Below are positions 22,368 through 64,000 of a DNA stretch of 64,000 bases, in pieces. How positions within the stretch are numbered: position 1 is the first letter of the stretch; the number at the start of each line of letters is the position of its first letter. The DNA comes from Lytechinus pictus (lineage: Eukaryota), in contig NC_087250.1 of NCBI RefSeq assembly GCF_037042905.1, forward strand, positions 7,938,001-8,002,000, in the 5' to 3' direction. The position numbers and the translations under genes were made by a program. Under the pieces are notes generated by a model. That model made no database searches, was not told the DNA's origin, and saw only the letters and a program-made list of their open reading frames with translations.

Positions 22368-23260
22368 GCATTTGAGCGTGAGATGAATAAGGTTTAGGTG
22401 TTAAGTATAGTTTGGGTCAGTGTGGGTGAGTGGGATGATATGAGAGTATAGACATTTGAGTGTGAGATGAATAAGGTTTAGATGTTGAATTTAGTTTGAG
22501 TCAGGGTGGGTAGGTGTGGGATGATATGAAATAAGCTAGGTTGAATTTGAGTGTGAGGTGAATAAGGTTTAGGTGTTGAATGTAGATTGTGTCAGGATGA
22601 GTTGGAGTGGGATGATGTAAGTCTAGACAATTAGACATTTGAATGTGCGATGATTTTGGTTTAGGTGATTCCTTCTCATTCCCGAGCTGGCATTTTAAAG
22701 TGGGGGTTGGGGCAGGGTGTGTGTGTGATGATAATGAGAGAAGGCATTTGAGTGTGAGATGAATAAGGTGTAGGTGTTGAATGTAGTTTGCATGCTGGGT
22801 CAGGGTGAGTGAGTGGAAGTGGGATGATGTAAGCTAGACATTTGAGTGTGAGATGAATAAGGTGTTGAATGTAGTTTGGATCATGGTGGGTAGGTGTGGG
22901 ATGATATAAGAGTAGACATTTGAGTGTGAGATGAATAAGGTGTTGAATGTAGTTTGAGTCAGAATGAGTGGGTGTGGGATGATAATGAGAGAAGGAATTT
23001 GAGTGTGAGATGAATAAGGTGTAGGTGTTGAATGTTTGGGTCAGGGTGAGTTGGACTAGGATGATATGGTGTAGACATTTGAGTGTGAGATGAGTAAGGT
23101 TTAGGTGTTGAATGTAATTTGGGTCAGGATGAGTGGGTGTGGGATGATGTAAGCTAGACATTTGAGTGTGAGATGAATAAGGTGTTGAATGTAGTTTGGG
23201 TCAGGGTGGGTGGGTGTGGGATAATATGAGAGTATATATACAGGCATTTGAGTGTGAAAT
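22368..23260. repeat. ~60-70-bp minisatellite (catttgagtgtgagatgaataaggt...)
   Basis: About 13 degenerate tandem units. Confidence 0.85.
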
Positions 23261-23379
23261 GAATTAAGTTTAGGAATAAGGTGTACGTTGAATGTATATT
23301 CGTGTATTCATCCATTCTGCTCATAATATGATTTTATGTTTCGGTTTGTCATATATTAAGCATTTTTGGTGTGCTTAAA

Positions 23380-23619: not shown

Positions 23620-23663
23620 ATGTGGGTTCGTCCGGAAGAGGTTCTCATTGCGAATGCACTTTG
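23620..23663 (+). CDS. TBC1D9: TBC1D9 coding exon 1 ([15 protein letters not shown])
   Basis: ATG at 23620, donor gtgagt at 23664; family N-terminus. Confidence 0.9.
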
Positions 23664-41600: not shown

Positions 41601-44361
41601 TTTCCTGATTCTTCAATGGTGAAGACAATCATCTATTTGTACTTCCTAAACAATTATGAATGATTTAAGAGCCAAACTAGCTGAAATATGATATCTCTAC
41701 TGTTAATTATTTATGTAACAATTGGCTATCCATACTTAAACCACAACTTCAAACCTGAGTTTAAGTTAAACCCGACTTCAGAATACGGGCCCCCAGTCAG
41801 TAATCTTTGAGCATAGATTACACTTGATTCTACACTCGCTCCAGAACAAAGGAAATGGCTATTTTGGCTTGTTCATCCTATTGTTCTGTACCTGAGCGTG
41901 TATTTTTTAGTGTAAAATTACTTTCACACTCAAGATTACTGACTGCCACTGTATCTCACATAGAATACTTACATGTAATATTGACTGGCCTCGAGGGGAA
42001 CATAAAATATATTGCCCGCATTGAAATCATATTTGCCTGAGTCTTTAGACTAGGGCAATATGGTTCTCTTAAGGCCAATTGTTGTTTCCTGAAAGAAGCC
42101 AGTCAATATATTTATTATTATCCAAATCAGATATCTAGAGCAAAATTGTGTAAATTTAGATACGTATACCCTTTCAGAATGTGATTCTATTAATTCATGT
42201 TGAGCAGGCTGTGCCTCCAAGCTTTACCATGGTGACATATTTGAAATGTCGCAGTGTCCAGCGTTTGTCTCATTTTGTTTTACGTTATGACGTATATTAT
42301 GTTGCGCGGATCAATATGACGCGTATCTCTTTCTACATGTATGGATATGCACGGATGTGAGACCAGGGAAAATACAAAGGTATATTTTGCGTCGTCTCTG
42401 CATGCAAAGTCAGTACGCGCATTGAGACTGAGGAAAATACAAATAATATACCTATCCCTTCGCCATATTTATGAAATCTAGGGCAATATGGTCTGTAAAT
42501 TACCAGCTCAGATGTCTGATATATGGGTAATAATTGTCTTTATTGCTGATCTCTTTTCGTATGATTTTCTTCCTAACAATGGGCATCTGATTTGTTGAAT
42601 GCATAGATGAAGAGAGCAAGCATTTCAAGGCTGCATCTGATAAATGGAGACGACTCTTCACCATACAGGAAGATGAGAAGCTTGTCAACTGTAAGTCAAA
42701 CTTCTGGGAAATGTATGAATACCTTAGCATAGTTTTCGAGTAGTACAGCTTTTTCCGTATTTAGTACTGAAAAATTAGAAGAATACTGGTGGTTTATACA
42801 AAATACTGATTTTTAAAGCTCAGTTTTACGTGTTGTCCTATGGTATTTCTTTGAAAGTACTGATTTCCTCACCAAATTACTGATTTTCAGCTTTTAAAGT
42901 ACTGAAGTGTTTATGTTTAGGTTGGCTGCTCTGCCTTCGAGTAACCAACATGTACATGTACATTGAATTTACTATTTGGATACATGTATGTCAGATATTG
43001 ATTTTCTTGTTCTTGTCTTATTAATGTGAGTTTGAATGTTGAAACATGAATACAGTAAATAATATTACAGGGTTATAAAAAAAACAGCAACCCAGGTACG
43101 TGAAATATTTTCTTCATTTGGCCAAAGAATAAGTTAATCTTGCTTGACATTCATTGCTTAACACAGATTTGTTTATAAATGCATGCTTTTATTAATATAT
43201 TGACTAAATATATTTGCATTGCTCAATACACATATTTATTTTAAAGAAACGATAAAACTTTCCCTGTTCTGTTACTGAAGAGACAGCTTCTGTAGAAGGA
43301 GATTTTTTAATTGGTAAGCAGTATGGATTTTGTTTTTATTCAGGCTCTAAATCATCTAGGAAGGCAATAGTTTGTCCCGATGCCCATTAACCATTGATAA
43401 TCACTTATATGACATCAGAGCCACTCGTGCAATAATTTGTTATATTCAACCAATATTTATTCTTTTAGATTACTCCTGTAGCTACCCTCAGGGTTGGCTC
43501 TACTTCAGCGTGGAACATTTCAGTTTTTATTCTTTCCTGATGGGGACCGAGTCCAGGCTCCAAATCAGCTAGAAAGGCAATGGTTTGTCCCGATGCCCTA
43601 TTGGCAATGATTGCTTGATATCACAAGTACCCATGAACTAATTTGTTATATTCAACCGATGTTTATTCTCATAGATTACTCCTGCAGTTATTGGAAAGGG
43701 CGTGTACCTCGCCAGGGCTGGTTGTACCTCAGCGTGGATCATTTCTGTTTTTATTCTTTCCTCATGGGAAACGAGTCCAGGCTCCAAATCAGATGGACAG
43801 AAGTTACAGTAAGTAGAATATAATTCTATTATATAGTCTAACCTGTATTTAAAGGCCGCTCAAGGGGGACAAGAAAAGTGGTCCTCATGAGCAAGTGGTC
43901 TCTAATAATGCAGAGGTTCCTGTAATATGACTCATGGGGAAATCAAACTAAATGAAGTAATAAAATAGGTTTGACTATATCCTCTTCTTGTAAAGAACAT
44001 ATCAGCCAATATCTTTACACCCTTCAATCCATCATCATCATCACCATCATCATCACCACCATTCAACCACTACCACCACCATGATCATCATCATCACCAC
44101 AATTCAACCACCACCACCACCATGATCATCATTATTAACATCACCATCATCGTAATCACCATCATCTTCATCATCACAATCATCATCATTATCATTATCA
44201 TCATCATCACCATTATCATTGTCATCATTACCACCACCACCATCATGACCATCATCATCATGATGATCATGATGATCATGATCATCGTCGTCATCATCAT
44301 CATCATCATCACCATCATCATCAACATCATCACCATCGTCATCATCATCATCATCATTATT

Positions 44362-44393
<32 letters not shown>

Positions 44394-44402
44394 TATTATC
44401 AC

Positions 44403-44447
<45 letters not shown>

Positions 44448-44480
44448 TATTATTATCATCATCATCATCATTATTATCAC

Positions 44481-44537
<57 letters not shown>

Positions 44538-44571
44538 TATTATCACCATCATCATCATCATCATCATTATT

Positions 44572-44603
<32 letters not shown>

Positions 44604-44624
44604 TATTATCACCATCATCACCAA

Positions 44625-44675
<51 letters not shown>

Positions 44676-44709
44676 TATTATCACCATCATCATCATCATC
44701 ATCATTATT

Positions 44710-44744
<35 letters not shown>

Positions 44745-44748
44745 TATT

Positions 44749-44815
<67 letters not shown>

Positions 44816-44847
44816 CCACCACCATCACCATCATCATTACCACAACC

Positions 44848-44881
<34 letters not shown>

Positions 44882-45012
44882 CCATCATCACCACCATCAC
44901 CATCATCATTACCACAACCACCATCACCATCACCACCACCACTATCATCATCATCATCATCATCATCACCATCATCACCACCATCACCATCATCATTACC
45001 ACAACCACCATC

Positions 45013-45046
<34 letters not shown>

Positions 45047-48000
45047 TCATCACCACCATCACCATCACCATCATCACCACCATCACCATCATCATCATCA
45101 CCACCATCACCATCATCACCACCATCACCATCATCATCATCACCATCATCACCACCACCACCACTGCCACCATTATCACAACCACCACCGGTCCATACAA
45201 TCATCATCATCACTAAAGGTAATCTTGCTTTTCCTTCTTCCCTAGCACCTGGAAAGGAGCAACTCTGTTCTATTTCCCGAGAGTATACGAGTGACGACCC
45301 GAGAGGGGCGGTATTACTTCTCCATGTTCGTCCATCCCGAGGAAACATTCCAACTGATGGAGCAGCTTGCCAATCTAGCCATGCGCCAGCTCCTCTCCGA
45401 AGAAGGCTTCTCAGAAGATCGTAATCTGCCGGACAGATCAAAAGTCAAGTGAGGCAACAACTTCTTGACTTTTTCATAATGCTAGATTTGATAATATTTA
45501 TAGTACTTAGTAATAATAATATGCAACTTTTTACAGCTTTATTTCTTCTAAATCCTGGCTATAGCATGGCTACTCTGATTAAGGTCCCGCTTCATAAAGA
45601 CGTGTTCTTGTAACAAAGGCATGATTTCTGTAACAACTTTACCATTAGCCAATCAGATAGAAGAATTTCAGTAGCTTTTAACTGTTGTAGCAAATTTGTT
45701 ATAACAAGTTTTATGAAACAGGCCCCAGGTTCAAGCATTCAAGGAATTCATTCCTAACGGGTACCCTTTTACCCCAATTAATTGTTGTATGCAATTCCTA
45801 AACATTGTGTGGATCATTGGAATATATGACATTCAGTCTAGATAAATGTTAAATGTACGTATTTTATGTTTTTTCTTCAGGAAAAAAGCTCCCAAGAAGG
45901 TCTCGTCTCTCAAACGTGATTTGGACGCTCGAGCAAGGAGTGAAGCTTACAGGTAAGATTACATTCTGATTACTTTGTTCACGAATTTCATTTTTATGTT
46001 CTTTCCTTTATAACTTGATGTAGGGACAGTGATTTTCCGTTTCAAAAAGTTGCCTTTTCCGTTTCAGAAAATCTCAAATTCCGTTTCAGCATGTCAGAAA
46101 ACGGAAATTCCGTTTCCCCCATAGACTTTGTACACACGGAAAAGTGACAATTCCGTTTACACATTGAATACCGTACACTCGCACTGGTCAAAATTTGTAT
46201 CTGCTACTGTACCAACAACACAATAGAATCCGTTCTAATCGGATCTATGCGGGTGCATAAAATATTTTTCCAACCCCATTTAGCATGCATACATCCTCAC
46301 CTTTCACATTATTAGCATTATTTCATGGTGAAATGATATTTCATCGATAATTTTGGGGTTTTTTGGACATCGTTATCATCAGTCAACGGCTTTTGCCAAT
46401 CCGCCATCTTGGATTTTAAGACCACGATATCGTGCTGTTACATCTTCAAACGTAGAGGGCAGCAACACACGACCGTGCAGTGAACGATATGTGTGTGCAT
46501 GTGAAGCCCAACCCGGCGCCGGCGGCAGGGTACGGGTACGGTGCGGGGTACAATCAAGTGTGCTGATGTCGAGTGCAGTCACGATGTGTGAATTGTTATG
46601 AAAGTAGCGAAGTGAGATCGTGTTTTCTGGGGTTTTGTGGCCATTTAATATTCTCATTTTGTTATGATTTTGGCGTAATTTCTGTTGCTATTCTGTGTAT
46701 TTTGAGGGAAAATACGTTTTCCGTGATTTTCCGTTTGAAATGACACTTTCCGTTTCAAAACACCCTTTCCGTGAATTCCGTCCGTTTTCCGCGATCGCGG
46801 AAAATCACTGTCCCTATTGATGTATTCTAATTCAATAACAAGATCTAATATTCAAAATAAGTTCCCAATCTAACGTCACAAATGATAAACCTTCAATTCT
46901 TTTGAAATCTCTTGATTTTATAACATTTTGTATTATTTTATAGTTTTCCTTAAAACATAGACCAATATTTTGTGCTAATTTTCTGCTTGTTATGAAACCA
47001 AACTCGTAAGGGTGAACTTCCCATTCAAACATGTTTGAATCAGGAAATACTTTAACTCAGTAAATATGTCTGTAAACAAATTCTATTGATCTTTGCCTGC
47101 AGGCGAGTGTTCCGGTTACCTGTTGCGGAGAAGCTGGATGGTAACATCCCTTGTACGCTCTGGGCTCCGTATAGCAAATCACACGTCGGCGGTACCATGT
47201 ATCTCTCAAGGAATTATATCTGTTTTGCTAGCAGGGTAAGTGGATTGCATTTAGCTTTTTGTCATAATCATGGTAATATGCATTAATATAGCACCGTCTA
47301 CCTGAGAATATGGTATTCTGAGGTGCACAAGAAAAACAGAAAGTATAAGAGAGTTTGGATGAGTGTCTTTGACCAAGAACGGATAATTTTAGATAAGATA
47401 AGACTTCAGGTGGGTGTTTCTTAAAGCTGTCCGTAAGTTATGAGCAAGTTTACAAATGACTGGTGATCCTTTCTTGGGCGCTAAATTAGCATCAAAGAAA
47501 ATGTGATGAATATCATTTACCACAAGAGAGGATCACCAGTCATTCGTTAAGTCACTTGTAACATATAGACGGATTTATGAAACACCTACCACCAGTTTAG
47601 ATTTGAAAGTCTCAAATTATGTTTTAATTCGTAAATTTAGTGGCAAATTATTCCAAAGAGAAGGTGCTGCGGCAAAGTATGTCTGTTGACTCTCATAGAG
47701 ATATTTTATAGAATTGGATAACTTAGAATGGGATACCAGTAATATAGTCGTGCCCCCATTCACATATGGGAAGCCTTTCATGGAAAGTTTTGTCGGTGAT
47801 TTTCTCTCACAAATTTTTTTCTTATCCAATCAGATGCAAGGATTTGCAGTAGCTTATAACAATAATAAGAAAAATTTGTCAAATTTCAGTGCCTCATGTA
47901 AAAGGCCCAATACTGCACATGCAAATCATGCAGACCAAAATACTTGCACAGCTACAATAGCTTATTTCAGCATCCACTTCTCAGATGCTTTCTTCAACGT

Positions 48001-49604
48001 TCATAATTCTATTGAAAATGCCCTTCAAATCACAATGGACAGATTGGAGGTCATTGTCAGAAGTTGGTGGACCAGGGGCCCATTTTATAAAGAGTTACAA
48101 CTGTTGTTTTGCCATAATGGCAACTACCATGGCAACAGGGCTCAGCAGCCAATCAGAATCAAGGTTACCATGGTAGTTGCCATAATGGCAAAGTTACAAC
48201 AGTTGTAACTCTTTATGAAACGGGCCCCTGGAAAAGCACATTGTCTTAAGAATCGGTCCGGATGGAAAATTGCAATTACGCCGTTTGTCAGTGACGACAA
48301 GTGCTGCTGTTTTGATTCACCGATATTTGACAAAGGCTGCTTTTTTATGAAGAGCTTTTAACAAAAAATAATCAGCATTATAGAAAGCGTCTGCAAAGGG
48401 ATTGCTATAGTACCCTATTACTAATACAAACATTCATGAATGTTTCTTTCATGACTTTGGCATATATGTTTTAACAAAGATAATCAGCATTATAGAAAGC
48501 GTCTGCAAAGGGATTGCTAAAGTGCCCTATTACTAATATATATATTCATGAATGATTCTTTGGCATAATGTTTATTTTTCAGAAATACATTGGTGCTAAC
48601 AAGTTAGTTAACCCCACCAGTAAATGAACATATTTAGGAAGTGTTCAAGTTCCGCAATCTTTTAGATGTTTAGTTGTGAAGTCAGATGATAAAATATTAC
48701 ATTCAATTAAAGTTCGTTTCTCTGGGCTAACCGGACTTAGTAGTGTTGCGGGCTACATTCAACACTCAGCATGAAGGAGTGCATTTTCTGGTGGGGTTCA
48801 CAAACTTTTTAGCACCATTGTACATGCATGCTCGTGTATTGATATTGAATTTGTTTGTGTTTTTTTTGTGGTCAGATCAAGAATCTTGTTCAGGTGGTTA
48901 TACCGATGAGAGATGTAACGGTGGTGGAGAAGGTTGAGAATTCATCCCTCATCAACCAAGGGCTACATATATCAACAAGAGCTAAGGTAAGAGGATGGTG
49001 GTGGTGGTAGGAGTGGTGGTGATGGTGGTGATGATGATGGTGGTGATGATGACAATGAAGGTGATGATGATTGTGGTGATGATGATGATGATGATGATGA
49101 TGGTCGTGGTAGGAGTGGTGGTGGTGATGGTGATGATGATAATGATGATGATTGTGGTGATGATGATGATGGTGATAGTGGTGGTGATAGTGATGATGAT
49201 GATGGTGGTGATGATGGTGATGATGATGATGATGATGGTGATGATGATGGTGATGATGATGATGAAGATGACCATGATGGTGGGGATGATATGATGATGA
49301 TTGTGATGATAGTGATGTTGGTGGTGATGGTGGTGGTGATGATAATGATGATGGTGATGATGATGGTGATGATAATGATGAGGATGGTGATGGAAAAGGT
49401 TGAGAATTCATCCCTCATTAGCCAAGGGCTACATATATCAACTTGAGCTAAGGTAAGATGATGGTGGTATTGGTAGGAGTGGTGGTGGTGATGGTGATGA
49501 TGATGGTGATGATGGTGGTGATGATGATGATGATGATGATGATGGTGATGGTGATGATGTTGGTGATGGTGATGATGGTGGTGGTGGTGATGATTATGAT
49601 AATG

Positions 49605-49636
<32 letters not shown>

Positions 49637-52600
49637 GATGATGGCCCTAATGTTAATGACAATGATAATGAAGGCAGTGAAAAATGAAAATGAAAAAATA
49701 ATGATGTCATTAACAAATATGGGGATAGTTATCATGTTGTTACTGAAAATAATAGCAATGATAATGACTAATAATAATAAATATTTAATAGCTGATACTG
49801 GTTACTCGTGGTAATAGATTTACTTTACCTAGATGATCAAGTGTTCACAATATATTTTATTTTTTTTAATTTACAGATGACATTCCTCTTTGCACAGCTG
49901 ACTGACAGAGATTTTCTTGTTCAACATATATCTGATTTCCTTGCAAAAACAACCGAAAATGCCAGGTAATGCCTATGGCAAATCGAAAGCAGAATGAAAA
50001 CGACAGACCAATATATATATTGATAATATTGGTAATAATGGTAATGGTGAAGATAATTTATTGTAATAATAATGTTAATAATAATAATAACAATAAATTA
50101 TAATGCACCAAATCCACTCTGCAGAGTGCTCAAGGCGCAATGCCGGAAGGAAGAAAGAGAGAGAGAGAAAAGGAAGTTATACATACATGTATGCAGTGAC
50201 AAATGAGAGAACTTGAGGAGTTATTGACAATTAAGAGTAAGAATCATTAAATAGATGCATATTTAGCTAACGTTTATTGTGTCAACAGAAGTGCATTCAC
50301 AAAAAACCAAGGTAAGATCATTCTAGAGAACAAGATCAGCGGGAGCAAAAGCCTTTATTTCTTATTCTTAATTTTTATGAAGTCTTTCTTTATATAATGT
50401 TTATGTTAGGGTATCAATTCAGTTCAATGACTGTAATCATTCTTGTTTTCATTTACAGACCTACAGGAGACGGCATCTCCATAGCGTCGTCAAACGAGGG
50501 CAGTATAACACGCTCTACCGCTGATCCAATGCAAAGCTTACTAAGTTCAAGCTTCGGTAGCAACGAGAGTGGTAAGTAGGTTCCCTCTTTCTGAATATCT
50601 TACCGTCTGTCCGTGCAATATGAATTTTCATATCCCATCAATTCGGTGGATTCACGATACGGTGCGCCATCTATCCGTTGCAGCAAACAGGCCAAATTTC
50701 TAACTTCTACCTTCTTAACGTACAAAAAAAAAATTGTTTGGATTTTGTGGTACAAATAATAATGCTCTTAACTGTATCATGATGATCTTAAGAAAAGAGA
50801 TATATTTTGCCAAATTTTGAAAAGACATTTACCACAATTATGTCGGCTTTAAAACTTTATTATGAAATGGAAAAATGTTTATATGAAACAAATTTCAGAG
50901 CAAATAAGTTCAGAAAGAAACGGTTTTGTTTCAGAAACTGTTTCAAACAAGCTGGCAATCTGTCACCTTATCATACATAATTATTACCAATGTTTATTTC
51001 TTAGATATATGTATCAGATCTCTTATTTTTCTTGCCAAATTTGCTTTGGCTGTGACAACTTATTGATTGTATAATAGGTCAGTTTGACTATGTGTCTATG
51101 TATTAGGAATTATGTATATTTACTGTTTGTCTGAAAAATTTGTAAATGTTTATACAGTGTAATTATGCTTTTCGAAAATAAAGAACCTTGTGGAAGGGAG
51201 AATTTTTTTTTTCTAACTGCGGGGTCGACATGGCGCGGGTGCATGCAGCGTACAGTACTAGTATACTGTATTGTTACTGTGATGGTTCCAAAATGAAAAC
51301 CATATGGCAAGTATTCACCAAAAACAGTCTAGATTTCGCAAAGAAATAGGCGGGCAAATTTCTCTCCCACCTCCTGGACCCTAGTAAACAGCATACATGT
51401 ATCTGGTCGAGCCTCGTCAGCCAGGGAGAATAATCGTTGCATGCATGCACTTTATAGTACTAGCGCGTGCGCAACAGATTTGACTTTTTCCCGTGAGGCA
51501 TCGCGAATTTCGGCCCGTCTGCTGCAACCGCTAGATGGCGCATCGTATAGTAAATCCACCGAATTAATATCTGTCTCTATTTTTCTTTCGTTCTATATAT
51601 CATAATTACTTTTTTTCTTTGTGTGACGATGCCTGCAGGTTTGCTGTTAATGCTTTCTAATGCTAATATAATTTTAAACATTTTATGGAGACATTGTAGG
51701 TCAGCTTAGGGGCCCGTTTCATAAAGTACTTGCAACTGTTGTAACTTTTGCCATAATGGCAACTACCATGGTAACAGGGCTCAGCAGCCAATCATAATCA
51801 AGGTTACCATGGTAGTTGCCATAATGGCAAAGTTACAACAGTTGCAAGTTGATTTATGAAACAGGCGCCAGATCTTGGATATGAGTAATTATGCCAATAT
51901 TTCTTTTGCTTTTCATGCGAGTATACTTTACATTAAATTTTAAGGCTTTGTACAAATCAAATAGTAAATATCCCTCTTTGTGCATCGGTACAAGATTTTG
52001 CATTGTTGAGTTGAATAGATTATCTTTATTTCGCCTCCTGCGAAAAAAACCATTGCATGAAGAGCAATATTTGCTATTTTTACAATAGCCAATCAATAAC
52101 AATGTTGCATGCACTTTTTGTTCAATGAATTGATGAGGAGCCAATTAAAATTACTCTTTAATCACTCCACTGCCAAGTTTTTTATTACAACCCTCCTTTC
52201 TTCACTTTGGATTTGTTTTGATTAAAGGGAAACTTCACCCTGACAAAAAGTTTATTGTAAAAATAGCAGAAAAATAATAAAAAATATTTGGGAGGGTTTG
52301 AGGAAAATCCATTGAAGAATAAAAAAAATTATTACAATTTCAATTATTTGATTTGTGACGTCATATGCGAGCAGCTTTCCTACATATCAATGGTAAAAAA
52401 TCAATAAAATTTCATTATCTCAGAAAATTGAAAATGGTTTTCATTGTACCTTCAGTACATCAATACACAAATGATTTCACACCCGATCATAAAAGAAAAT
52501 AAAAAATTAGTCCTCACGAACCATCAAAAAATTATATTTATGCATTTTATATTACATCACAATATGGAGTGGCTGCTCGTTTATGACGTCACAAATCAAA

Positions 52601-55600: not shown

Positions 55601-58402
55601 TACTCTGGCGCCATCAATGAGGTTAGTGCCCTTTGAAGATAAATGCCAGTTGGAATGATTTCGAAATAAGTTCATATCGAATCCAATAAAATGACCACCT
55701 AAGAATTCGGTGGAATCAAAATACGGTGTACCATCTATTCGTTGCAGCGAAAAAGCTGAAATTCGCAATGCATCATGGGAAAAAGTCAACATCTGTTGTG
55801 CATGCTGAGTGTGAATGCATGCATCCGATTATTCATCGCTGGCCGCCACGGCTCGACCGGATATGCTGTTTACTAGGTTTATTCTGTTTGCAGTGCTATT
55901 TCATTATGCCACGATGGTGAAGAAAACTGATTCAGTTAGTATTTCCAGGCAATAATGGATGACCTGAATGAGAGTTGAGCTTCAAAATTGAACCTGTACT
56001 TCTAAAAACTTGTTTCACAATTTGGCTTTCCATAGTTAAACCACAGCTTTAGACCAGAGTTTAAATTAAACCAGAGTTCAGAATATGGGCCTTTAGGTGG
56101 TATTCTGATGGCCATGGTTTAGTTAAACCCGGTTTAACTTAGACCACACTATTATGGAGTGCCACTTGTCAACTTTTATTCACAAATAATTATTCTTATC
56201 CTGTTGCAAAAAGTTGTCAAATAATAATAGAATCCTGAAATTGGAAGAATAGGAAAATACAAAAATATAATGAATTTTTATGAATTTATTGGTACGTAAT
56301 GATTTCCATGAATACGGAAGAAGTATTCTGAAGCCAGCATTCCATACAAGTGTGGTATAAAGTACTAGAGTGAGACCTATATGTAATTATCAAAATACCA
56401 CCAATTGTGTTCATATGAAAAGCATGATATTATAGTGGAATATTGTTATTGTTTATTGTAAAATTTGGTCTCATATTTCAGATGGCAACACAACCTGGGT
56501 ATTACCAATCATTAGTTGAACAGAGTCTGGGGAGAGAGACTATTGCTACCGATGAGATCGAGAGAGACCTTCATAGGTAATATATTGGTTTATATTCATC
56601 TGGGGAAAATATTATTACAATGATGGGGTTTCCATAGAATTGAGGTTGATCAGATCAATCGTAACTCTTTGTAAGACGGGACCTTGCTACATTTGTTTTA
56701 TATCCTACTTTAATAAGTTAGAATAATAGATATTGATAATCTAGTTCTTGTACTCATAGTTAATAAAAAAAAAAAAATCTGAACAAAATATAGGTAACGC
56801 GCTCTGCTGACTGACCTATTTCGGAACGCGGATTAGTGCCTGCGCCGTCCCTTCACGGGACTTGCCCGGTAGAGACACCTTGCTGACCGAGAGATTGCAT
56901 TATCTGTCACGGAATAGTCAATTTTCCTTAGTGGGCGTTTTGTTTTGACGGCATAACTAGAATATCCATGGTTACGTGATGCTATTTGAACCAATCACTA
57001 TACAGGATTTGATTTATGTAGGATATAATAAAAACTATTTGATTAAAACCCTGTTCTATTTAGATCACTACCCGAGCATCCTGCCTTCCAGTCCGAGCTC
57101 GGTATAGCAGCTTTGAGGAGAGTTCTTACAGCGTATGCCTACCGTAATCCAACCATTGGTAAGAACCTTAAGGTGGGTTAGGAGGGGGGGGTGAGGTAAG
57201 GTATAGCAGCGTTGAGGAGGGTCCTTACAGCGTATGCCTACTGTAACCCAACCATTGGTAAGAACCTTAGAGTGGGGTAGGAGGGGGGGGGGGGCAGTGG
57301 CGGACCGTGACCCGGAGGAGACAAAGCATTGGAGGGGCACAGCATTGTTCACAAACAATACAGTGCCCCTCCAATCATTTGTCTCCTTTGGGTCACCATC
57401 CGCCACTGGGGGGGGGGGGGTGAGTTGGGGTATAGGAGCGTTGAGGAGGGTTCTTATCGCGTATGCCTATCGTAACCCAACCATTGGTAAGAATCTCCGG
57501 GTGGGATAGGAGAGAGAGAGAGAGATAGATGAGATGATTGTGTATTATTATTGTGTCTTAATACGGAGTTCAGATTGAATTGAGAAATGTTCCTTTTCAG
57601 GACTACCCACATTCTGAGCTACTGTATGATTCTCTTTTGCGTTATGTAATTTTGTTTGATTCATTTGTCATTATTTGTCATTATTTTAACTGTCATGTTC
57701 ACATGTGCTAAAAAAATTGTAGTGTTTAATTTCTCATATGTATAAGCTAGTGGAGGAAACATTTCTATGTAATTTTTTTATTGAATATCATAGATGAATA
57801 AATCAAAATGAATTTAATTGAATAGGTATACATGTAGGATGTTATAGTAGAAGTATTAAAGACCATCAGCAAATTTCGATGGTTTTAATATTATACCCCG
57901 GCCTGTGACATAAAGCTCAGTGATTAATCATAGTGCTGAGTTTTGCAATTGATCATGCACATTAATCAATGGAATCAATCGTAGTAATCCGACCTACGAT
58001 CATTTTCTAAGCTTCATGTTACCGGGCCCAGTACATCAGTCCAACATAGCCTATATTTCTGGCAAAAAAAGAAAAGAAATTATTTTGGGGGGCTACTTTT
58101 CACAACATATTGTCTACATGTACATCTGCTACATTGGGTAAGCTTTAACACTGCAATGAATGGGAATTTTCCAGGGCTCCTTTTTGTGTTTTCTGGGCCG
58201 AGTCTTACAAAAAGTTACGATTGATCCGATCAATCACAACTATGGAAAGCCAGCAACGTCAGAGCGTGGATCCCCTAAGATAGTATCAGAGCTGCCAAGT
58301 AGTACGATTTTTCCGTATTTAATACGTTTTTGCAACCGAAATACGGCAGTACGTTTTTTCTTTAAAAAATATGTTTTTTGTATTTAAAAAAAAAAAAAAA
58401 TA

Positions 58403-58440
<38 letters not shown>

Positions 58441-61400
58441 ATCGAAATTTATTGAGAAAAATCATCTCTATATGTCTCTATTTCATAAAACGTACACAAA
58501 TATGGTTATTAGATCAATGTAATTTCAGGTAACTTGTTTTTTTTTTCAAATCATTTTGTAAAAACCAGGGTGAGATATACACAAGTTTCAATGATTTTTT
58601 TTTCAATCTGCAAGAGCAGTGCACATTTTAGCTTGCATGCAGCTTGAGCGCCGTGATGGGCGAGTGCGCCAAGCATTTTAATATGAAATACACTTTTTTT
58701 GGGAAAAATACAAAATATTTATCTCACACGGTAAAAATACTGATTTTTTTGTCAAAATACTGATTTTGGGGGATAAGAATACTGAAAATGCAAAATACAA
58801 CTTGGCAGCTCTGTAGTATATTAAACATTTGAAAAATGGGTCTCGTTCGCAAGTGTAAATACAATAAGTTAAAATAGAATATTGGAAATAATAAGATGGT
58901 GAGTAATAGCGAGAAATGATAAAAAGATGACAGAGATACGGGACGATACAAAAAAACTAAAAGGAAAACAAAGACATGACGAAGAATAGAGGGGAGAGAG
59001 AAGGAATTAAGTACTGAAAGGGGAGTGAGAGGGCAAAGATAAAGTGGGGGGAGAGAGACAGATAGAGAGGGAGGCACACACACACGCAGATTATGTGGAG
59101 AGAAAGGGTCAGAAGGAGAGAGGGGGGGGGGGAAAGAACGAGAGTGCAAACGTAGATCAAAGAGAGTGTGACTTAATAGCGTGCTTAGACAATACTAAAA
59201 ATATAAAACTAATTAATTACTTTGGTAAGACAGTAACATAAATATTTTTAGTTTTCTCTTAAAGGAGTGGATAGAGGGGGCCTGTTGAACATCTTTATGG
59301 AGTGAATTCCAAAATTTGGGGGCGGTGAAAATAAAAGTATTTTGCGCAAAACGAGTTCTTAAGATAGGTAGATGAAAGTTATCGGCTTGTCTGGTAGGAT
59401 ACCTATGAAAATTGTTATTTTGAGAAAACAAATCATGAAATGCAAAAGGAACCATATTGTTTTTATACATGTACATAAACTGTCCAAGCTGAAATTGGTA
59501 TAAGTCTTGAATCTTTAAAATTTTATAATCAAGGAAAAGCGGATCAGTGTGAGAACGGGGGTGTGAGAATGAAATAATACGAAGGGCTTTTTTTTGTAAT
59601 AATAATATTTTGTTAAGTAAACTTTGGTGGGTATTGCCCCAAACAAGGATCCCGTAGTTGATACATGTATATGGTAATATAAGAGGTGTGAGAATGAAAT
59701 AATACGAAGGGCTTTTTTTGTAATAATAATATTTTGTTAAGTAAGCTTTGGTGGGTATTGCCCCAAACAAGGATCCCGTAGTTGATATATGGTAATATAA
59801 GAGAAGAATATAATGTAAGTAGAGAAGTAACAGGAATAAACGTTTTCAACCTATTTATGATGCCTATATTTCGGGATATTGTTTTACAAATATTATCAAT
59901 ATGGCATTTCCAGCAGAGTTTGTTATCTACACGAACTCCCAAAAATTTAATTGAGGAGACACTTTCCAATTTAAAATCTTCAATAAAAATGTCAAAAGGT
60001 AAGGAATCTATGGTATTACTGAATAAAATGTATTTAGTTTTTTTAAGGTTAATTGATAATTTGTTAGCTCTGATCCAATTCAAAATATTAGTTAATTCAG
60101 AGTTTATTATGTTAACAAGTGTAAGCGGATCATTGTGAGAGAAGAATAGATTTGTGTCATCAGCAAAAATAATGAAAGATAAAATGTTAGATGCTCTGCA
60201 AAAATCATTTATATATAAAGTAAACAAGAGAGGTCCCAGAATACTTCCTTGTGGCACACCACAATTAATATTACACAAATTAGAGGAATGGTCATTGAGA
60301 AAAACAAATTGATTTCTGTTAAAGAGGTAATTCCTGAACCACTCCAAGGCCTTCCCACGTATGCCATAATGCGATAATTTATGAAGTAGGATGTCATGAT
60401 TAATAGTGTCGAAGGCCTTGGAGAAGTCCAGGAAAATACCGACCATGTGTGAGGATTTATCGACAGCATGAGCAACTTTTTCAACAAAGGATAATAAGGC
60501 GTGAATTGTACTGTGCTTTTCTCTAAATCCAAACTGGAAATTTGTATATTCATGCATTCTTTGTTTTATTGAAAATTCACCATGCCTCTCTTTGTTTACA
60601 AAGGGCATTTTTCAAATTTCCTGCAGAAAAAATTATGACACTGATGGATTTTCATAGAGTTATGATTGATTGGATCGCTCATAACTCTTTGTAAGACGGG
60701 GCCCAGGGCTATATCGAGCATGTCGGGGGCAAAATCGACTCGACCCTATGTAAACATTCCCCTGCTAATATTGATATTTTATCTATTAGGTTACTGCCAA
60801 GCAATGAATATAGTAACTTCAGTGCTGTTACTATATGCCAACGAAGAAGAAGCGTTCTGGCTACTGACGGCTGTATGTGAACGGCTCCTTCCCGACTACT
60901 ACAACACTAGGGTCATTGGAGCACTGGTGGATCAGGGTACGTACATCCAGTTATCTGATATGGGGCCCAATCTCACAATACTTTTACCAATATTTTATCA
61001 GTTCTTTATCAATACTCGTACAGGAAATAAAACAAGGACTTAAATGTTTACGAACTCCAACTTTCTTTAGAAAGTATCGATAATTCTTCTTTTAGCTACA
61101 CCTTTAATGTACAATCACTTTATGAGTTTCTTATTTCATTACATTCTTAAAGAGGTCCACTCCACTCCCCAATCCAGAATAAAAGTTATTAGAGTGGTCA
61201 AGGACTCGTTGTTGTTATAAAAAGGGTTCAGTTGAGAACTGCAGTCAGACTAGACTTAAATGATCACGACTTGACTTTCTAAATAAGATATCAGATTGCA
61301 GGTTTCAATTCAGTTTCAGTTTAGTTTATTTCACTTCCATTTTCTGATAATAAACATAACAAACATATATATACATATGTATAAATGTACAAAACAGAAT

Positions 61401-63746
61401 AAGTGTCATAAGAATACTTCAATAATCAATTAACAAATTCGTAGGAAATAGATGAAATGTATACAATTTTTGTTCAAGATACATTTTGATGGTTTCGACA
61501 TCGCAGTTTACAGAGCACTAATAGTATGCCCAGTCACATCCTTTGGATTGTGATGTCAAACATTGATCCAAAAAGATGTAAAATAACGCATTGTTGTAAC
61601 ATTAGGCATAGCTGAAACACTACCTGTTGTAACAGAGGCCTCTATTAGAGCATTTTTAGCGCTAAAAACGTGTCTGTGCGGCCGGTCGAGGGCTGTGCTT
61701 TCGTCAATATGATCCAATTCAGAGGGTATCATTATCAATGCCAATCAATATTGTATCAAGGCCACCGCACACCTTACGACCCGACGGGTCTACGACTGGC
61801 TTGCGACTGAGTGAGGGGAGATGTGACGTCACAGCACTTGTCAGCTTGAGTCGCGGACCGGTCAGAGACAAGTCGCAAGGAAAATCGTAAGGATTTGACA
61901 TGTCGAATCCTTATGACTGGATCGCAAGCTCAATCCAACTTCCAGCCAATCAGACAGCAAAGTTGCACAACGCATATATGATAAACAACGCGCATACGCA
62001 GTAGTAAGCGCATTTTCTCAGTTGCTATGGAAAAAGCAAAAAGCGCATGCGTGAGTCGCAGACAGCGTAGTAGTCGGATCGCAAGGTGTGCGGTGTCGAG
62101 GCTTATGACCACCTTGCGATTTCATCTCTACTCAGTCAGTCGCAAGCCAGTCGTAGACCAGTCGGGTCGTAAGGTGTGCGGTGGGTGGCCTTTAAATGAT
62201 AATATGTATCCTAATCAAATGATTAGCTAAAATCTGTCCGTGACCAGTCATTTACTTTAGCTAACTTGAAAAAGTTGCTAATGACTGGTGCGAATGACTA
62301 GTTAAATTGACCAATCATGGTTTTAAAATAAGGATTAAAACAAGGATCCTCACTATCACTATTTTTTTATAAAACATTTAAAACGTATAAATAAAACGTA
62401 TAAAACGTATAAATAAAACGTATAAATGATGCACGTCAATTATGTATAAAACGTATAAAACGTATAAATGATGCACGTCAATTTGTTTGGGAATTCGAAT
62501 CATTACACACTCTTGCTACCTTTGAATCTGTTCAAGTGCCCTCGGCTGAGCCTCGGGCATGTTAAAACTGTTCCAATGGTACCTTGTGCACCTAATTGTT
62601 CCTATTGCCTGTGATGATGTGCATTATTTTTGTATTATATGACACCTAGATGGATCCTTGTCATTTGATTGGTTGTGTGATATCGATCATTCAGCCCATT
62701 TTACAATGACGTCATCATCCGTGCAATTTTGGATCCATACGATTTTGTCCATTGCACGTGTGCATCGAGACCGCAGGGGCCACAAATAAAAACAGTGGTG
62801 TTTGCAGTGCGCATGTTGTGTGTAAGTGACAATCAACAGACAAGCTCACACCGCGTGAGCTTATCTTTGATCAAAATACATAAATCTCAAATGATAAAGG
62901 ATCTATTTTAGTTGTCATATACTAGTAAACCAAATAATGAATATTCTTTTCATTCTTGCAATGTAAAGAATACTTCATTCGGTGATAGATGAAATGAATG
63001 ATCCATTCTAAGAGGCATATCCGAGTTGATGGATCAATTCATCTTTCACCTCGTGAGGTATCCTGTCCATGGCACCCCTAAACATTCATTATTTGTATAC
63101 TGTATTACTCAGGTGTATTTGAAGCCCTTACCAAAGAAACCATGTCTGAGCTATACAAGTTTGAAACAGTTCACTTGCCCTCAGCTAATCCTTGGGCATA
63201 TTAGAACTTTTCCAATGGTACACGGTGCATATAATTCTTACTAATGCCCTTAATGGTGTGTTTTATTTGTATACTATCTTGCCCAGGTGTATTTGAAGCC
63301 CTAACCAAAGAAACCATGTCTGAGCTATACAAGTTTGAAACAGTTCACTTGCCCTCAGCTAATCCTTGGGCATATTAGAACTTTTCCAATGGTACACGGT
63401 GCATATAATTCTTACTAATGCCCTTAATGGTGTGTTTTATTTGTATACTATCTTGCCCAGGTGTATTTGAAGCCCTAACCAAGGAAACCATGTCTGAGCT
63501 ATACAAGTTTGAAACAGTTCACTTGCCCTCAGCTAATCCTTGGGCATATTAGAACTTTTCCAATGGTACACGGTGCATATAATTCTTACTAATGCCCTTA
63601 ATGGTGTGTTTTATATTTATACTATCTTGCCCAGGTGTATTTGAAGCCCTAACCAAGGAAACCATGTCAGAGCTATACATGAAGATGGAAGAACTAGGAA
63701 TGCTGAGTATGATCTCTCTATCTTGGTTCCTTACAGTCTTTCTAAG
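23620..63746 (+). CDS. TBC1D9: TBC1 domain family member 9-like Rab GTPase-activating protein (GRAM-GRAM-TBC); multi-exon, 3' end beyond window
   Basis: 18 GT-AG exons join in frame. The translation [32 protein letters not shown]...[16 protein letters not shown]...[19 protein letters not shown]...[16 protein letters not shown] matches the TBC1D8/9 family as I recall it, including the TBC IxxDxxR and YxQ catalytic fingers. Confidence 0.95.
25590..26112. mobile_element. Cluster of about three related MITEs (gtgtttcataaagctg..cagctttatgaaacac); another copy at ~47409-47590
   Basis: Repeated inverted termini, Harbinger-like size. Confidence 0.6.
26207..26370 (+). CDS. TBC1D9: TBC1D9 coding exon 2 ([35 protein letters not shown]...ELYH)
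   Basis: cag acceptor, gtaagt donor, phase compatible with exon 1. Confidence 0.92.
26405..27450. repeat. Degenerate (GAT)n microsatellite with an internal ~345-bp duplication
   Basis: Direct reading; ggttgcaaatggtgatggtaacaatgat at ~26470 and ~26808. Confidence 0.95.
27756..27833 (+). CDS. TBC1D9: TBC1D9 coding exon 3 ([26 protein letters not shown])
   Basis: tacag/gtaag, conserved HWEWxEQNL. Confidence 0.9.
29204..29775. mobile_element. Kolobok-like MITE
   Basis: TTAA-AGGGCAA...TTGCCCT-TTAA. Confidence 0.7.
30023..33913 (+). mobile_element. 5'-truncated CR1/L2-group LINE inserted in a MITE
   Basis: ORF1 C-terminal remnant ([17 protein letters not shown]), ORF2 with PHD-APE-RT, 3' stem-loop near 33765-33821, AATAAA plus (TCAA)n tail. 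Confidence 0.92.
30405..33577 (+). pseudogene. LINE ORF2: PHD finger, apurinic endonuclease, reverse transcriptase; frameshifted near 33250
   Basis: C4HC3 [31 protein letters not shown]; an (AT)n slip splits 30405-33281 from the C-terminal frame ending at 33577. Confidence 0.9.
33971..34564. mobile_element. Kolobok-like MITE
   Basis: TTAA-AGGGATGGTCCGGGCTG...CAGCCTGGACTATCCCT-TTAA. Confidence 0.8.
35041..39730 (-). mobile_element. Near full-length single-ORF CR1-group LINE (Daphne/Rex1-like), antisense in TBC1D9 intron 3
   Basis: APE+RT ORF, ~1-kb 3'UTR, AATAAA and (TAC)n tail at ~35041-35070; 5' boundary approximate. Confidence 0.88.
36092..39430 (-). pseudogene. LINE ORF: hydrophobic leader, 2A-like peptide, APE, RT; one in-frame TGA at 38624-38626
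   Basis: ORFs 38624-39430 and 36092-38623 abut in one frame; [37 protein letters not shown]. Confidence 0.9.
40052..40153 (+). CDS. TBC1D9: TBC1D9 coding exon 4 ([23 protein letters not shown]...)
   Basis: cag/gtaaaa, phase 1-1, FExxxDxTxFVxxKI. Confidence 0.85.
40569..41025. mobile_element. Sola2-like MITE
   Basis: GGGCAATTCCA / TGGAATAGCCC termini, 4-bp TSD ATAT, internal gtaacgtgagtaacc repeats. Confidence 0.7.
41504..41791. mobile_element. Harbinger-like MITE
   Basis: GGCCCGTATTCTGAAGTCGGGTTTA inverted termini; fragments at ~1668 and ~56060. Confidence 0.75.
42607..42690 (+). CDS. TBC1D9: TBC1D9 coding exon 5 ([28 protein letters not shown]), start of GRAM1
   Basis: tag/gtaagt, EKLVN motif. 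Confidence 0.9.
43675..43808 (+). CDS. TBC1D9: TBC1D9 coding exon 6 ([32 protein letters not shown]...), GRAM1
   Basis: atag/gtaagt, highly conserved GRAM sequence. Confidence 0.93.
44030..45213. repeat. (CAT/CAC)n microsatellite, ~1.2 kb
   Basis: Direct reading. Confidence 0.97.
45246..45448 (+). CDS. TBC1D9: TBC1D9 coding exon 7 ([16 protein letters not shown]...[14 protein letters not shown]...)
   Basis: ctag/gtgagg, MEQLANxAMRQLL motif. Confidence 0.92.
45881..45952 (+). CDS. TBC1D9: TBC1D9 coding exon 8 ([24 protein letters not shown])
   Basis: ttcag/gtaaga, LKRDLDARA motif. Confidence 0.92.
46021..46816. mobile_element. hAT-like MITE with 6-bp TSD; relative at ~25292-25522
   Basis: TIR TAGGGACAGTGATTTTCCG, TSD TTGATG, subterminal ttccgt repeats. 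Confidence 0.8.
47103..47235 (+). CDS. TBC1D9: TBC1D9 coding exon 9 ([13 protein letters not shown]...NYICFASR), GRAM2
   Basis: gcag/gtaagt, FRLPxxEKLDG and NYICF motifs. Confidence 0.92.
48075..48228. mobile_element. Palindromic Harbinger-like MITE; sister copy 51709-51869
   Basis: GGGGCCC..ATAAAG..CAACTGTTG arms, near-identical second copy. Confidence 0.75.
48876..48986 (+). CDS. TBC1D9: TBC1D9 coding exon 10 ([24 protein letters not shown]...)
   Basis: tcag/gtaaga, IPxRxVTxVEK motif. Confidence 0.9.
48990..49645. repeat. (GAT/GGT)n microsatellite in two blocks, part of the exon-10 duplication
   Basis: Direct reading. Confidence 0.92.
49877..49965 (+). CDS. TBC1D9: TBC1D9 coding exon 11 ([25 protein letters not shown]...)
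   Basis: tacag/gtaatg, FLFAxLxDRDFLV motif. Confidence 0.92.
50459..50571 (+). CDS. TBC1D9: TBC1D9 coding exon 12 (Ser-rich linker)
   Basis: tacag/gtaagt, open frame, phases fit exons 11 and 13; weak homology. Confidence 0.75.
50641..51564. mobile_element. MITE with ATTCGGTGGATT..GCGCCATCTA inverted termini; fragment at ~55704
   Basis: ~33-bp imperfect TIRs; TSD unresolved. Confidence 0.65.
52226..52713. mobile_element. Kolobok-like MITE
   Basis: TTAA-AGGGAAACTTCACCCTGA...TCAGGGTGAACTCCCCCT. Confidence 0.7.
52803..53200. repeat. ~100-bp degenerate tandem repeat (about 4 units)
   Basis: gtgttaacaga..ttatgataat..gtgggtgtattcaca recurs. Confidence 0.7.
53398..54068 (+). repeat. ~100-bp tandem array of the exon-13 acceptor and 5' half (7 units, the last is the live exon)
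   Basis: tattcattttagcc(c/a)ctgaaacaagcagtgagt..tttcagctccaacctgcctta repeated. Confidence 0.9.
54006..54162 (+). CDS. TBC1D9: TBC1D9 coding exon 13 (...[33 protein letters not shown])
   Basis: ttag/gtgagt, KExxWxxHFxEYG motif; several alternative upstream acceptors exist. Confidence 0.85.
55513..55621 (+). CDS. TBC1D9: TBC1D9 coding exon 14 ([36 protein letters not shown]), TBC start
   Basis: gcag/gttagt, GxPxxLRGExW motif. Confidence 0.92.
56482..56576 (+). CDS. TBC1D9: TBC1D9 coding exon 15 ([32 protein letters not shown])
   Basis: tcag/gtaata, arginine-finger IERDLHR. Confidence 0.93.
57064..57158 (+). CDS. TBC1D9: TBC1D9 coding exon 16 ([32 protein letters not shown])
   Basis: ttag/gtaaga, conserved TBC sequence. 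Confidence 0.93.
58287..58813. mobile_element. hAT-like MITE with 6-bp TSD TAGTAT
   Basis: TIR CAGAGCTGCCAAGT / ACTTGGCAGCTCTG. Confidence 0.75.
59213..60545 (-). mobile_element. 5'-truncated CR1/L2-group LINE RT fragment with a ~126-bp internal tandem duplication
   Basis: [26 protein letters not shown]; duplicated gtgtgagaatgaaataatacgaagggc at ~59561 and ~59687; splits a MITE (58193-58261 / 60546-60705). Confidence 0.88.
60790..60936 (+). CDS. TBC1D9: TBC1D9 coding exon 17 ([26 protein letters not shown]...GALVDQ)
   Basis: ttag/gtacgt, glutamine-finger YCQAM. Confidence 0.95.
61760..62190. mobile_element. Harbinger-like foldback MITE
   Basis: GGCCACCGCACACCTTACGACCCGAC inverted termini. 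Confidence 0.75.
63090..63678 (+). repeat. ~174-bp tandem array of the exon-18 acceptor and 5' part (4 units, the last is the live exon)
   Basis: caggtgtatttgaagccct..accatgtc.gagctatac at ~63111, 63284, 63458 and 63632. Confidence 0.92.
63635..63746 (+). CDS. TBC1D9: TBC1D9 coding exon 18 ([38 protein letters not shown])
   Basis: ccag/gtaagt, [12 protein letters not shown] motif. Confidence 0.92.
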
Positions 63747-64000
63747 GTAAGTTTGTTCAAATTTATTTTCCATTTCAGTTAAAGGGGAAAAAAATTGTTT
63801 TTCCTGCTTTGTTCGACTACAGTCAAATACAGCAGACTGCCAAGTTCTATTCACAATACAACCAGAGTGCATTAAGTCTTTTGTTCACACACATACACAA
63901 TAGTGATGTGTGCATCTCATTGACTGTGTACTCACAAAGCTTTTTTTTTACAATAAACCAATCAAAAGCTGTTGTAAGCTGAATTAGCATAATCCATATG

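Follow-up and report, generated by a model that had tools for sequence, protein, structure and literature searches.

Why do so many exons of one sea urchin gene lie beside partial copies of their own splice junctions? The question is raised by a 64,000-nucleotide stretch of the Lytechinus pictus genome (assembly GCF_037042905.1, contig NC_087250.1, forward-strand positions 7,938,001 to 8,002,000), referred to here as the window, which carries the first 19 coding exons of a TBC1D9B-like gene. Next to several of these exons, one end of the exon is repeated head to tail together with its acceptor or donor site and a piece of the adjoining intron; such copies are called echoes below. An initial annotation of the window had described them and proposed a duplication or retention process focused on exon junctions. 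The analysis presented here indicates that the echoes are genuine and that junction-straddling duplications are more frequent than chance placement allows, and it favors as the probable explanation ordinary small tandem duplications acted on by selection and differential survival in a duplication-rich genome.

The host gene occupies 23620..63746 on the + strand (positions are those of the window), where its first 19 coding exons encode amino acids 1-707. The exon at 45246-45449 has 100% identity to the Lytechinus variegatus protein P0001, a TBC1 domain family member 9B-like protein of 1396 amino acids, and tblastn combined with an exact junction search yields a model that is GT-AG throughout its 19 exons and rebuilds 706 amino acids with 5 mismatches to P0001. 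The same five deviating residues are present in the L. pictus protein P0221, from the 90% cluster of P0001, in keeping with an origin of the window in L. pictus or a very near relative. Exons make up 5.3% of the gene span. The exon numbering of the initial annotation is one too low from 13 on, its exons 13, 14, 16 and 18 being E14, E15, E17 and E19 of the present model. An older L. pictus annotation splits the gene into two models, P0223 and P0224, one of which runs past the exon 15 donor into the intron and has the C-terminal residues VSAL. The exons are as follows.

23620-23663, + strand, exon E1
26207-26370, + strand, exon E2
27756-27833, + strand, exon E3
40052-40153, + strand, exon E4
42607-42690, + strand, exon E5
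43675-43808, + strand, exon E6
45246-45448, + strand, exon E7
45881-45952, + strand, exon E8
47103-47235, + strand, exon E9
48876-48986, + strand, exon E10
49877-49965, + strand, exon E11
50459-50571, + strand, exon E12
52766-52843, + strand, exon E13
54006-54162, + strand, exon E14
55513-55621, + strand, exon E15
56482-56576, + strand, exon E16
57064-57158, + strand, exon E17
60790-60936, + strand, exon E18
63635-63746, + strand, exon E19

The echoes were charted with Tandem Repeats Finder (TRF), alignment of the sequence to itself with the Basic Local Alignment Search Tool (self-BLAST) with and without microsatellite masking, tblastn protein matches and pairwise alignments, and the four views are concordant. 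They reveal eight local direct-duplication loci, each containing one splice junction, at 7 of the 19 exons. The earlier description of exons flanked by partial tandem copies of their junctions is confirmed by TRF, self-BLAST, tblastn and alignment, and the duplications are independent, as had been claimed. The count given at the time, seven duplications at six exons, was too low: all seven of the listed loci are found, and the donor array of E13 was absent from the list. The copies, together with a more distant piece of the E19 unit, are located as follows.

43341..43576, + strand, acceptor echo of E6: one copy of the unit 43554-43800, at an offset of 213
49365..49486, + strand, donor echo of E10: copy of 48893-49020 (TRF, self-BLAST, alignment)
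52901..53218, + strand, donor echoes of E13: three copies of the unit 52797-52899, period about 104 (TRF period 106; self-BLAST)
53397..53965, + strand, acceptor echoes of E14: six copies, period 103-104; the true exon starts at 54006
54235..54992, + strand, donor echoes of E14: four alignable copies and a degenerate piece at about 54399-54443 (tblastn; self-BLAST 68-81%)
55099..55197, + strand, acceptor echo of E15: 85% identical to 55466-55563, with AG at 55145-55146
57200-57290 and 57429-57512, + strand, donor echoes of E17: copies of the unit 57101-57191 (TRF period 99, 91%)
63089..63505, + strand, acceptor echoes of E19: three copies, period 174 (TRF 3.4 copies, 97%)
62521..62638, + strand, older piece of the E19 unit: intron part only, stopping about 10 bp before the acceptor position, with no exon sequence

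The units share one anatomy. At all eight loci the unit contains a single junction with 45-126 nt of exon and 20-130 nt of intron, and at none of the eight does it contain a whole exon. The inner, terminal member of every array is the intact exon, with donor copies trailing downstream and acceptor copies leading upstream. The copies are direct repeats arranged head to tail, with TRF periods of 99-174 and a self-BLAST offset equal to the unit length at E6, E13, E14, E17 and E19; the E15 echo and the third E17 copy are also tandem once an inserted repeat is subtracted.

On the acceptor side, the E6 unit comprises about 121 nt of intron and 126 nt of exon (self-BLAST 75% over 254 columns), and its echo keeps the AG at 43467-43468 and carries one in-frame stop. 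The E14 acceptor unit, consisting of about 39 nt of intron, the AG and the first 65 nt of the exon, is scored by TRF at 5.3 copies with 89% matches; the AG is kept in five of the six copies, the first having tg in its place, and the exon parts are 92-97% identical. The E15 unit includes 47 nt of intron and 51 nt of exon. The E19 echoes, with about 129 nt of intron and 45 nt of exon, are 87-98% identical to the true unit, which ends at 63679; all three keep the AG, and the context of two is identical to the true site. The piece at 62521-62638 matches 63160-63277, 63334-63451 and 63508-63625 at 76% over 118 columns by self-BLAST, and its pairwise alignment did not extend to the splice site.

On the donor side, the E10 unit combines the 3'-terminal 94 nt of the exon with the donor and about 34 nt of intron, and its echo, which sits within a degenerate TGA microsatellite (49020-49671), keeps the GT at 49453-49454 and has indels of -1 and -5 and one stop. 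The E13 unit extends from 47 nt inside the exon across the donor to about 56 nt inside the intron; GT is kept in all three copies, one of which is degraded to gtcaat, and two of the three have frame-breaking indels. The E14 donor unit joins the last 53-56 nt of the exon and the donor to 55-80 nt of purine-rich intron, and its four copies all keep GT and all have T at position +3, where the true donor has G. The E17 unit has the final 58 nt of exonic sequence together with the donor and about 33 nt of intron, and both echo donors read TTG followed by gtaaga like the true one.

The splice dinucleotide is kept in 20 of 21 copies (AG survives in 10 of 11 copies on the acceptor side, and GT in all 10 on the donor side), which bears out the earlier remark that many copies retain it intact. 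The pseudo-site context is identical or nearly so at E15, E17, E19 and E10 and is weakened at the E14 donors and in one E13 copy. Codon-by-codon comparison reveals a stop or frame-breaking indel in 8 of 20 copies, and divergence between copy and true unit is 2-25%, with indels. Summed over the copies, divergence amounts to 0.095 in the exon parts (1184 aligned bases) and to 0.121 in the intron parts (1336 bases), roughly as would be expected if the true exon alone were constrained and the copy drifting; together with the broken frames, this indicates that the copies decay about neutrally. Conservation of the echoed exons from Lytechinus to Ptychodera, Patiria and Branchiostoma shows that the exon came first and that the echo derives from it. 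Of the 1162 bp of intron 13, about 985 (about 85%) are echo DNA; the part of the gene inside the window has gained about 2.8 kb in this way, and an array at E22, beyond it, contributes about 680 bp more.

Transcript evidence is thin and points to the true splice sites. Three RNA-like contigs, a kind of record that drops rare forms, use these sites only: record 2 of X1 bounds E14 at 54006-54160, record 15 of X16 bounds E19 at 63633-63746, and record 9 of X16 carries E12 to 50570 and E14 from 54006 with exactly 79 nt between them. As 1 nt of E12 and the 78 nt of E13 together account for these 79 nt, there is no extra microexon at this position. Echo-derived residues are found in none of the 6 annotated proteins of the cluster. 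Of the earlier suggestion that echoes act as decoy splice sites, the likeness in sequence therefore stands, and no use of the copied sites is seen in the RNA contigs or annotated proteins; the decoys may well be silent. The L. variegatus isoform P0222 (1370 amino acids) lacks amino acids 443-469, which correspond exactly to E13; the introns on either side of this exon are the two richest in echo DNA, and the exon may be of the cassette type.

The frequency of junction-straddling duplications was assessed with a null in which one duplicated unit of the observed size is dropped uniformly and the tolerated outcomes are intronic placement or the inclusion of one junction only. The expected junction-straddling share is 9-14% on present-day coordinates, 11-19% after arrays and microsatellites are collapsed, and 15-22% after recognised transposons are also removed, their removal being incomplete. 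The observed share is 8 of 13 loci (8 of 10 in E5-E19), with p = 5e-6 to 2e-4. Ancestrally short introns are rejected as a full explanation, as collapse lifts the expectation no further than the last of these ranges. The comparison that the initial annotation had put forward, of exons with random windows, gives a weak or marginal excess (tails 0.013 to 0.27): a local direct copy, with 20-bp flanks included, is found for 7 of the 19 exons; the corresponding share of random non-exon windows is 14-18% within the gene span, 20-25% for the stretch 42-64 kb and 27-28% for the 23.6 kb upstream of the gene. This window test is weaker than the placement test because long arrays cover much of the intron, with the exon sitting only at the array edge.

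As the window had been picked as striking, out-of-sample sequence was also examined, and 100 kb was fetched on each side to give 264 kb. This region contains 78 local direct-duplication loci that cover 21.6% of its bases, one per 3.4 kb, and duplication density inside the gene is like that of the surroundings. In the second half of the TBC1D9B-like gene (8 exons), E22 (L006 2348-2530) is followed by seven full and one partial donor copies of a unit in which roughly 77 terminal nt of the exon adjoin the donor and about 15-20 nt of intron, with a period of about 90. The AATF gene (13 exons, minus strand, mapped with P0121 and P0122) has two junction loci, one a copy, 93% identical, of an exon's final 116 nt with about 30 nt of intron, set off by a 312-bp spacer that opens with a high-copy repeat, and the other a three-unit array of 384 bp that includes the last 22 nt of another exon. 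A VCPIP1-like gene (12 mapped exons, P0126) has four junction loci. A homologue search for an ankyrin-repeat neighbor gene gave no match, and that gene was left out of the counts.

An automatic rule returned 17 loci in the second half of the gene and the two neighbor genes, of which 15 were used. The two dropped are an acidic low-complexity match between AATF exons 3 and 4 (big-region 196885-197852) and an exon-internal 113-bp fragment of the VCPIP1-like gene, and one AATF locus that was automatically scored as inside an exon was recounted as junction type after alignment revealed about 30 nt of intron similarity. Junction loci then number 7 of 15 against 12.1% expected (p=0.001), or 6 of 15 (p=0.006) without the manual AATF recount, and p=0.017 applies if units are twice as long. 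The pattern is not peculiar to the TBC1D9B-like gene.

A genome sample was drawn from 47 windows of about 1.7 kb on Pfam kinase or myosin-head exon fragments, taken in list order and with no stop in the match; kinase fragments were restricted to matches no longer than about 340 bp and open frames no longer than 200 amino acids, and myosin fragments came from the top of the list. These windows hold 12 local duplication loci, 4 of which involve the central exon fragment, so that 4 of the 47 fragments have a local copy. An event-based null that takes account of window edges predicts 1.9 (p=0.10), an excess that is at most about two-fold and non-significant, and a looser null in which both copies are dropped on present-day sequence predicts 4.6 exon contacts among the 12, with no excess. 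The event-based null is preferred, as the looser one admits impossible layouts. Over all these data, junction-straddling duplications are over-represented about 3-4-fold in odds, and this effect is real. The initial annotation had argued from the few percent of the gene span that is exonic; the over-representation it saw is upheld at this size, and the 10-20-fold excess that the argument implied is not.

Ordinary small tandem duplication, followed by selection and differential survival, would produce these features in a few steps. Units of about 90-470 bp would likely arise through replication slippage or unequal exchange, in a genome in which small duplications are very frequent. A duplication within an exon or of a whole exon would alter the mRNA and be removed by selection, and one within an intron or over a single junction would keep one intact contiguous exon and be tolerated; the true exon presumably lies at the inner end of each array because single-junction duplications that leave it intact are tolerated. 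The copy and its splice signal would become intron, to be amplified by slippage, eroded by mutation and split by transposons while the intron lengthens, and the splice signals would still be largely intact because the copies are young. The spliceosome would keep the site joined to the complete exon, which for donors is the most upstream site. For acceptors, only the true site has a full exon and donor after it, and exon definition could favor it for this reason.

Three causes may contribute to the excess at junctions: a selective filter against intra-exon and whole-exon duplications, already built into the null; a slower loss of similarity in pairs that include a constrained exon, which by our estimate could amount to about 1.3-2-fold; and the possibility that much of the intron DNA, consisting of young repeats, was absent as a target for earlier duplications. 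Regarding the last of these, 22 of 30 bins of 49700-64000 have a depth of >1000 in run X4 (at least 90% likeness), compared with at most 50 over the exon and echo bins. The exonic fraction differs widely between units, with 22 of about 384 nt at the low end and about 116 of 145 nt at the high end (about 6% and about 80-90%), a spread that is as expected for random breakpoints.

Several observations weigh against this explanation. A crude count of copies versus exons gives a ratio of non-synonymous to synonymous change (pN/pS) of 0.25, below our rough neutral expectation of 0.4-0.55, with the caveats that half of the differences arise on the constrained exon lineage, that transition bias is ignored and that copies within an array are non-independent; and the silence of the decoy sites is read from few contigs and gene models. 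The others would favor exon-intron junctions as hot spots at which tandem duplications are born, for example through transcription, exon chromatin or fragile polypyrimidine or purine tracts. The junction excess inside the window, 8 of 13, persists after arrays, microsatellites and recognised transposons are collapsed (p about 2e-4), and outside the window it recurs in the neighboring sequence and in the pooled data, where 11 of 27 loci are observed against 3.7 expected (p=4e-4) and P is still 0.036 when the odds are multiplied by 2. Junction loci show no greater age than intron-only loci (median identity of the best high-scoring segment pair 79% versus 84%, Mann-Whitney p=0.99), and the age comparison thus lends no support to longer persistence. 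Of 13 intron-only loci, four stop no more than 35 bp from an exon edge (8-33 bp), which we estimate to be above chance, three long microsatellites adjoin exons (8 bp after E2, 23-34 bp after E10 and 30-57 bp before E7), and the E14 donor copies lie within a long purine-rich tract. A bias in birth is nonetheless considered unlikely, if worth serious attention. No breakpoint motif and no fixed distance to the junction are seen, the exon share of units varying as widely as given above; the excess in the 47 windows is small and disappears under the looser null; and with an odds multiplier of 3 the pooled data become unremarkable (P=0.20), a shift that survival effects would suffice to supply. To our knowledge, no mutational bias of this kind at junctions has been recognized, though no search aimed at it was made. 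Of the junction-focused process first proposed, the over-representation at exon edges is retained, and a targeted mutational process is possible but not needed.

Two further explanations concern the nature of the copies. That the arrays are assembly artefacts, from falsely duplicated haplotypes or mis-assembled repeats, might be suggested by the E19 array, whose copies are 96-98% alike, a likeness that falls within the allelic difference of sea urchins; it is nevertheless extremely improbable. Divergence is 5-25%, with indels, for most copies; an array can hold as many as 7 copies in order, at a period near 100 bp; and the pattern recurs at at least 15 loci on at least 6 contigs. Transposons also sit between copies: the E15 spacer (55198-55465) is a 268-bp dispersed repeat with 1295 first-look candidates genome-wide and one copy covering positions 3-266, and a palindromic repeat at 57295-57408 separates E17 copies 2 and 3 (inverted self-match; loose ends at 57295 in three runs). 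No independent DNA run covers the arrays; sequencing depth in the bin 53516-53992 is 0-1 in 4 runs and is uninformative on copy number or on presence in another organism. False duplication would leave identical or allelic-level copies with no independent history, and the arrays are of a different kind; in view of the 2-25% divergence, the stops and frameshifts in 8 of 20 copies and the later repeat insertions in two arrays, the copies are neither artefacts nor spare exons. Retention by selection for a function, as decoy sites, splicing enhancers, recursive-splicing steps or alternative (micro)exons, is quite improbable as well. It would fit the nearly complete retention of AG and GT, the E15, E17, E19 and AATF copies, which have no stop or indel and few non-synonymous changes, and the skipping in P0222 of an exon flanked by echo-rich introns; moreover, each E14 acceptor copy, like the true exon, has AG, 15 nt and GTGAGT, in principle an in-frame exon of 15 nt. 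Such retention of dinucleotides is, however, expected at the divergence observed, and the copies within an array are non-independent. No copy has both splice sites of an exon, the weakened T at +3 is common to all four E14 donor copies, and the exact 79-nt fit between E12 and E14 and the lack of echo-derived residues in the annotated proteins also speak against a function. Purifying selection on the copies, which the low pN/pS might imply, is rejected as outweighed by the broken copies and by the similar divergence of exon and intron parts.

A broader proposal, in which Lytechinus junctions are duplication hot spots and echoes provide both a main route of intron growth and a standing genome-wide pool of intact decoy sites for the spliceosome to ignore, with a minority possibly serving as microexons or regulators, is regarded as rather doubtful. 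One microexon candidate might be the 15-nt AG...GTGAGT units before E14.

Other elements were noted in and around the window. Three degenerate trinucleotide microsatellites of 0.65-1.2 kb (44030-45189 before E7, 49020-49671 after E10 and 26408-27402 after E2), with (CAT)n on the + strand and (TGA)n, match one another in inverted orientation. The exon-adjoining intron-only loci of the four gene spans are located at window position 26378, L006:1512, L008:8885-9571 and L016:4733-6078, and one of the four fills the entire intron between two VCPIP1-like exons. The 113-bp exon-internal fragment of the VCPIP1-like gene is present in four 99%-identical tandem copies with a period of 115 and no splice junction (L017:4275-4757; L017:4885-4997), about 130 bp upstream of its source and 87-88% like the exon. 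Introns 3 and 17 include long open frames at 30351-33281 (+), 36092-39445 (-) and 59213-60611 (-), whose translations, judged by eye, resemble endonuclease/reverse-transcriptase proteins of retrotransposons lacking long terminal repeats (non-LTR). A 0.9-kb tandem array at 22360-23274, with periods of 77-242 and 72-79% identity, ends about 350 bp upstream of the E1 start codon. Short palindromic elements at 48072-48231, 51708-51869 and 47409-47590 were identified as inverted self-matches, and two of them, 89% identical and in different introns, look like miniature inverted-repeat transposons. Among the kinase-domain matches in the genome, eleven with equal scores lie mostly 4.0-4.3 kb apart on one strand at G000:C7:28966763-29009091, with a twelfth slightly different, which suggests a tandem array of near-identical single-exon kinase genes.

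The TBC1D9B-like gene, which is conserved, is an unusually dense display of a known kind of event, with nine arrays and about 28 near-intact false splice sites beside the true ones, and its sequence indicates that short introns are able to grow from copies of their own ends. If the junction excess proved to be a bias in birth, it would reveal a new property of mutation in transcribed sequence; a bias in survival, which is held to be more likely, would make it an instructive yet ordinary consequence of a duplication-rich genome. A limited literature search found no account of numerous arrays of this type within one gene or from sea urchins.

Related phenomena are known from several systems. Tandem exon duplication can give rise to mutually exclusive exons, such as SCN alpha exons 5a and 5b (bioRxiv 10.1101/2025.08.16.670673). 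The Lytechinus echoes resemble these in being local copies of exon sequence in the same gene. Mutually exclusive exons are copied whole, each with its two splice sites and an open frame, and this origin is rejected for the echoes, which include a whole exon at no locus and are often broken. Intron gain by tandem genomic duplication, or Rogers' AGGT model, is outlined in Hellsten et al. 2011 (PMC3265369) and in a review (PMC3443670). As in that model, tandem duplication supplies a second splice signal and the mRNA may stay unchanged; there, however, an exonic segment is duplicated and a new intron forms between the copies, whereas the Lytechinus duplications have one breakpoint in an existing intron and create none. 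Intron gain by exonic AGGT duplication is accordingly rejected: flanking intron sequence is part of every unit, so the intron must have existed before the duplication. Internal gene duplications that include exon-intron boundaries form a class that a passage of PMC3443670 cites as Gao & Lynch 2009. Like members of this class, the small Lytechinus duplications cover parts of both exon and intron. The 2009 study of Gao and Lynch in the Proceedings of the National Academy of Sciences (PNAS) is said to have found internal gene duplications frequent in eukaryotes and a raw material of gene structure, with the stress on new introns. Unlike in that emphasis on intron creation, the Lytechinus units hold a pre-existing intron, and introns are lengthened.

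The closest counterpart is the 37-bp variable number tandem repeat (VNTR) in intron 7 (IVS7) of the human F7 gene, in which, according to Borensztajn et al. 2006 (PMC1557585), the first unit spans the exon-intron boundary and the pseudo-donors are silent. Experiments described there (PMC1557585) show that the most upstream donor is chosen by 5'-to-3' scanning and that identical pseudo-sites remain silent. The Lytechinus donor arrays at E10, E13, E14, E17 and E22 likewise present the true donor followed by a row of pseudo-donors, and the F7 layout recurs: repeats are head to tail, the terminal unit carries the true junction and part of the exon, and the pseudo-sites are like the true one. Silence is an experimental result for F7 and may hold for Lytechinus, whose three contigs and six annotated proteins show only true sites. 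We know of no acceptor-side counterpart to the F7 model. In contrast to the 37-bp repeat of F7, the Lytechinus units measure 90-470 bp, include 20-126 nt of exon, form acceptor as well as donor arrays and occur at nine loci in one gene, which offers a ready test bed for splice-site choice, on the acceptor side in particular.

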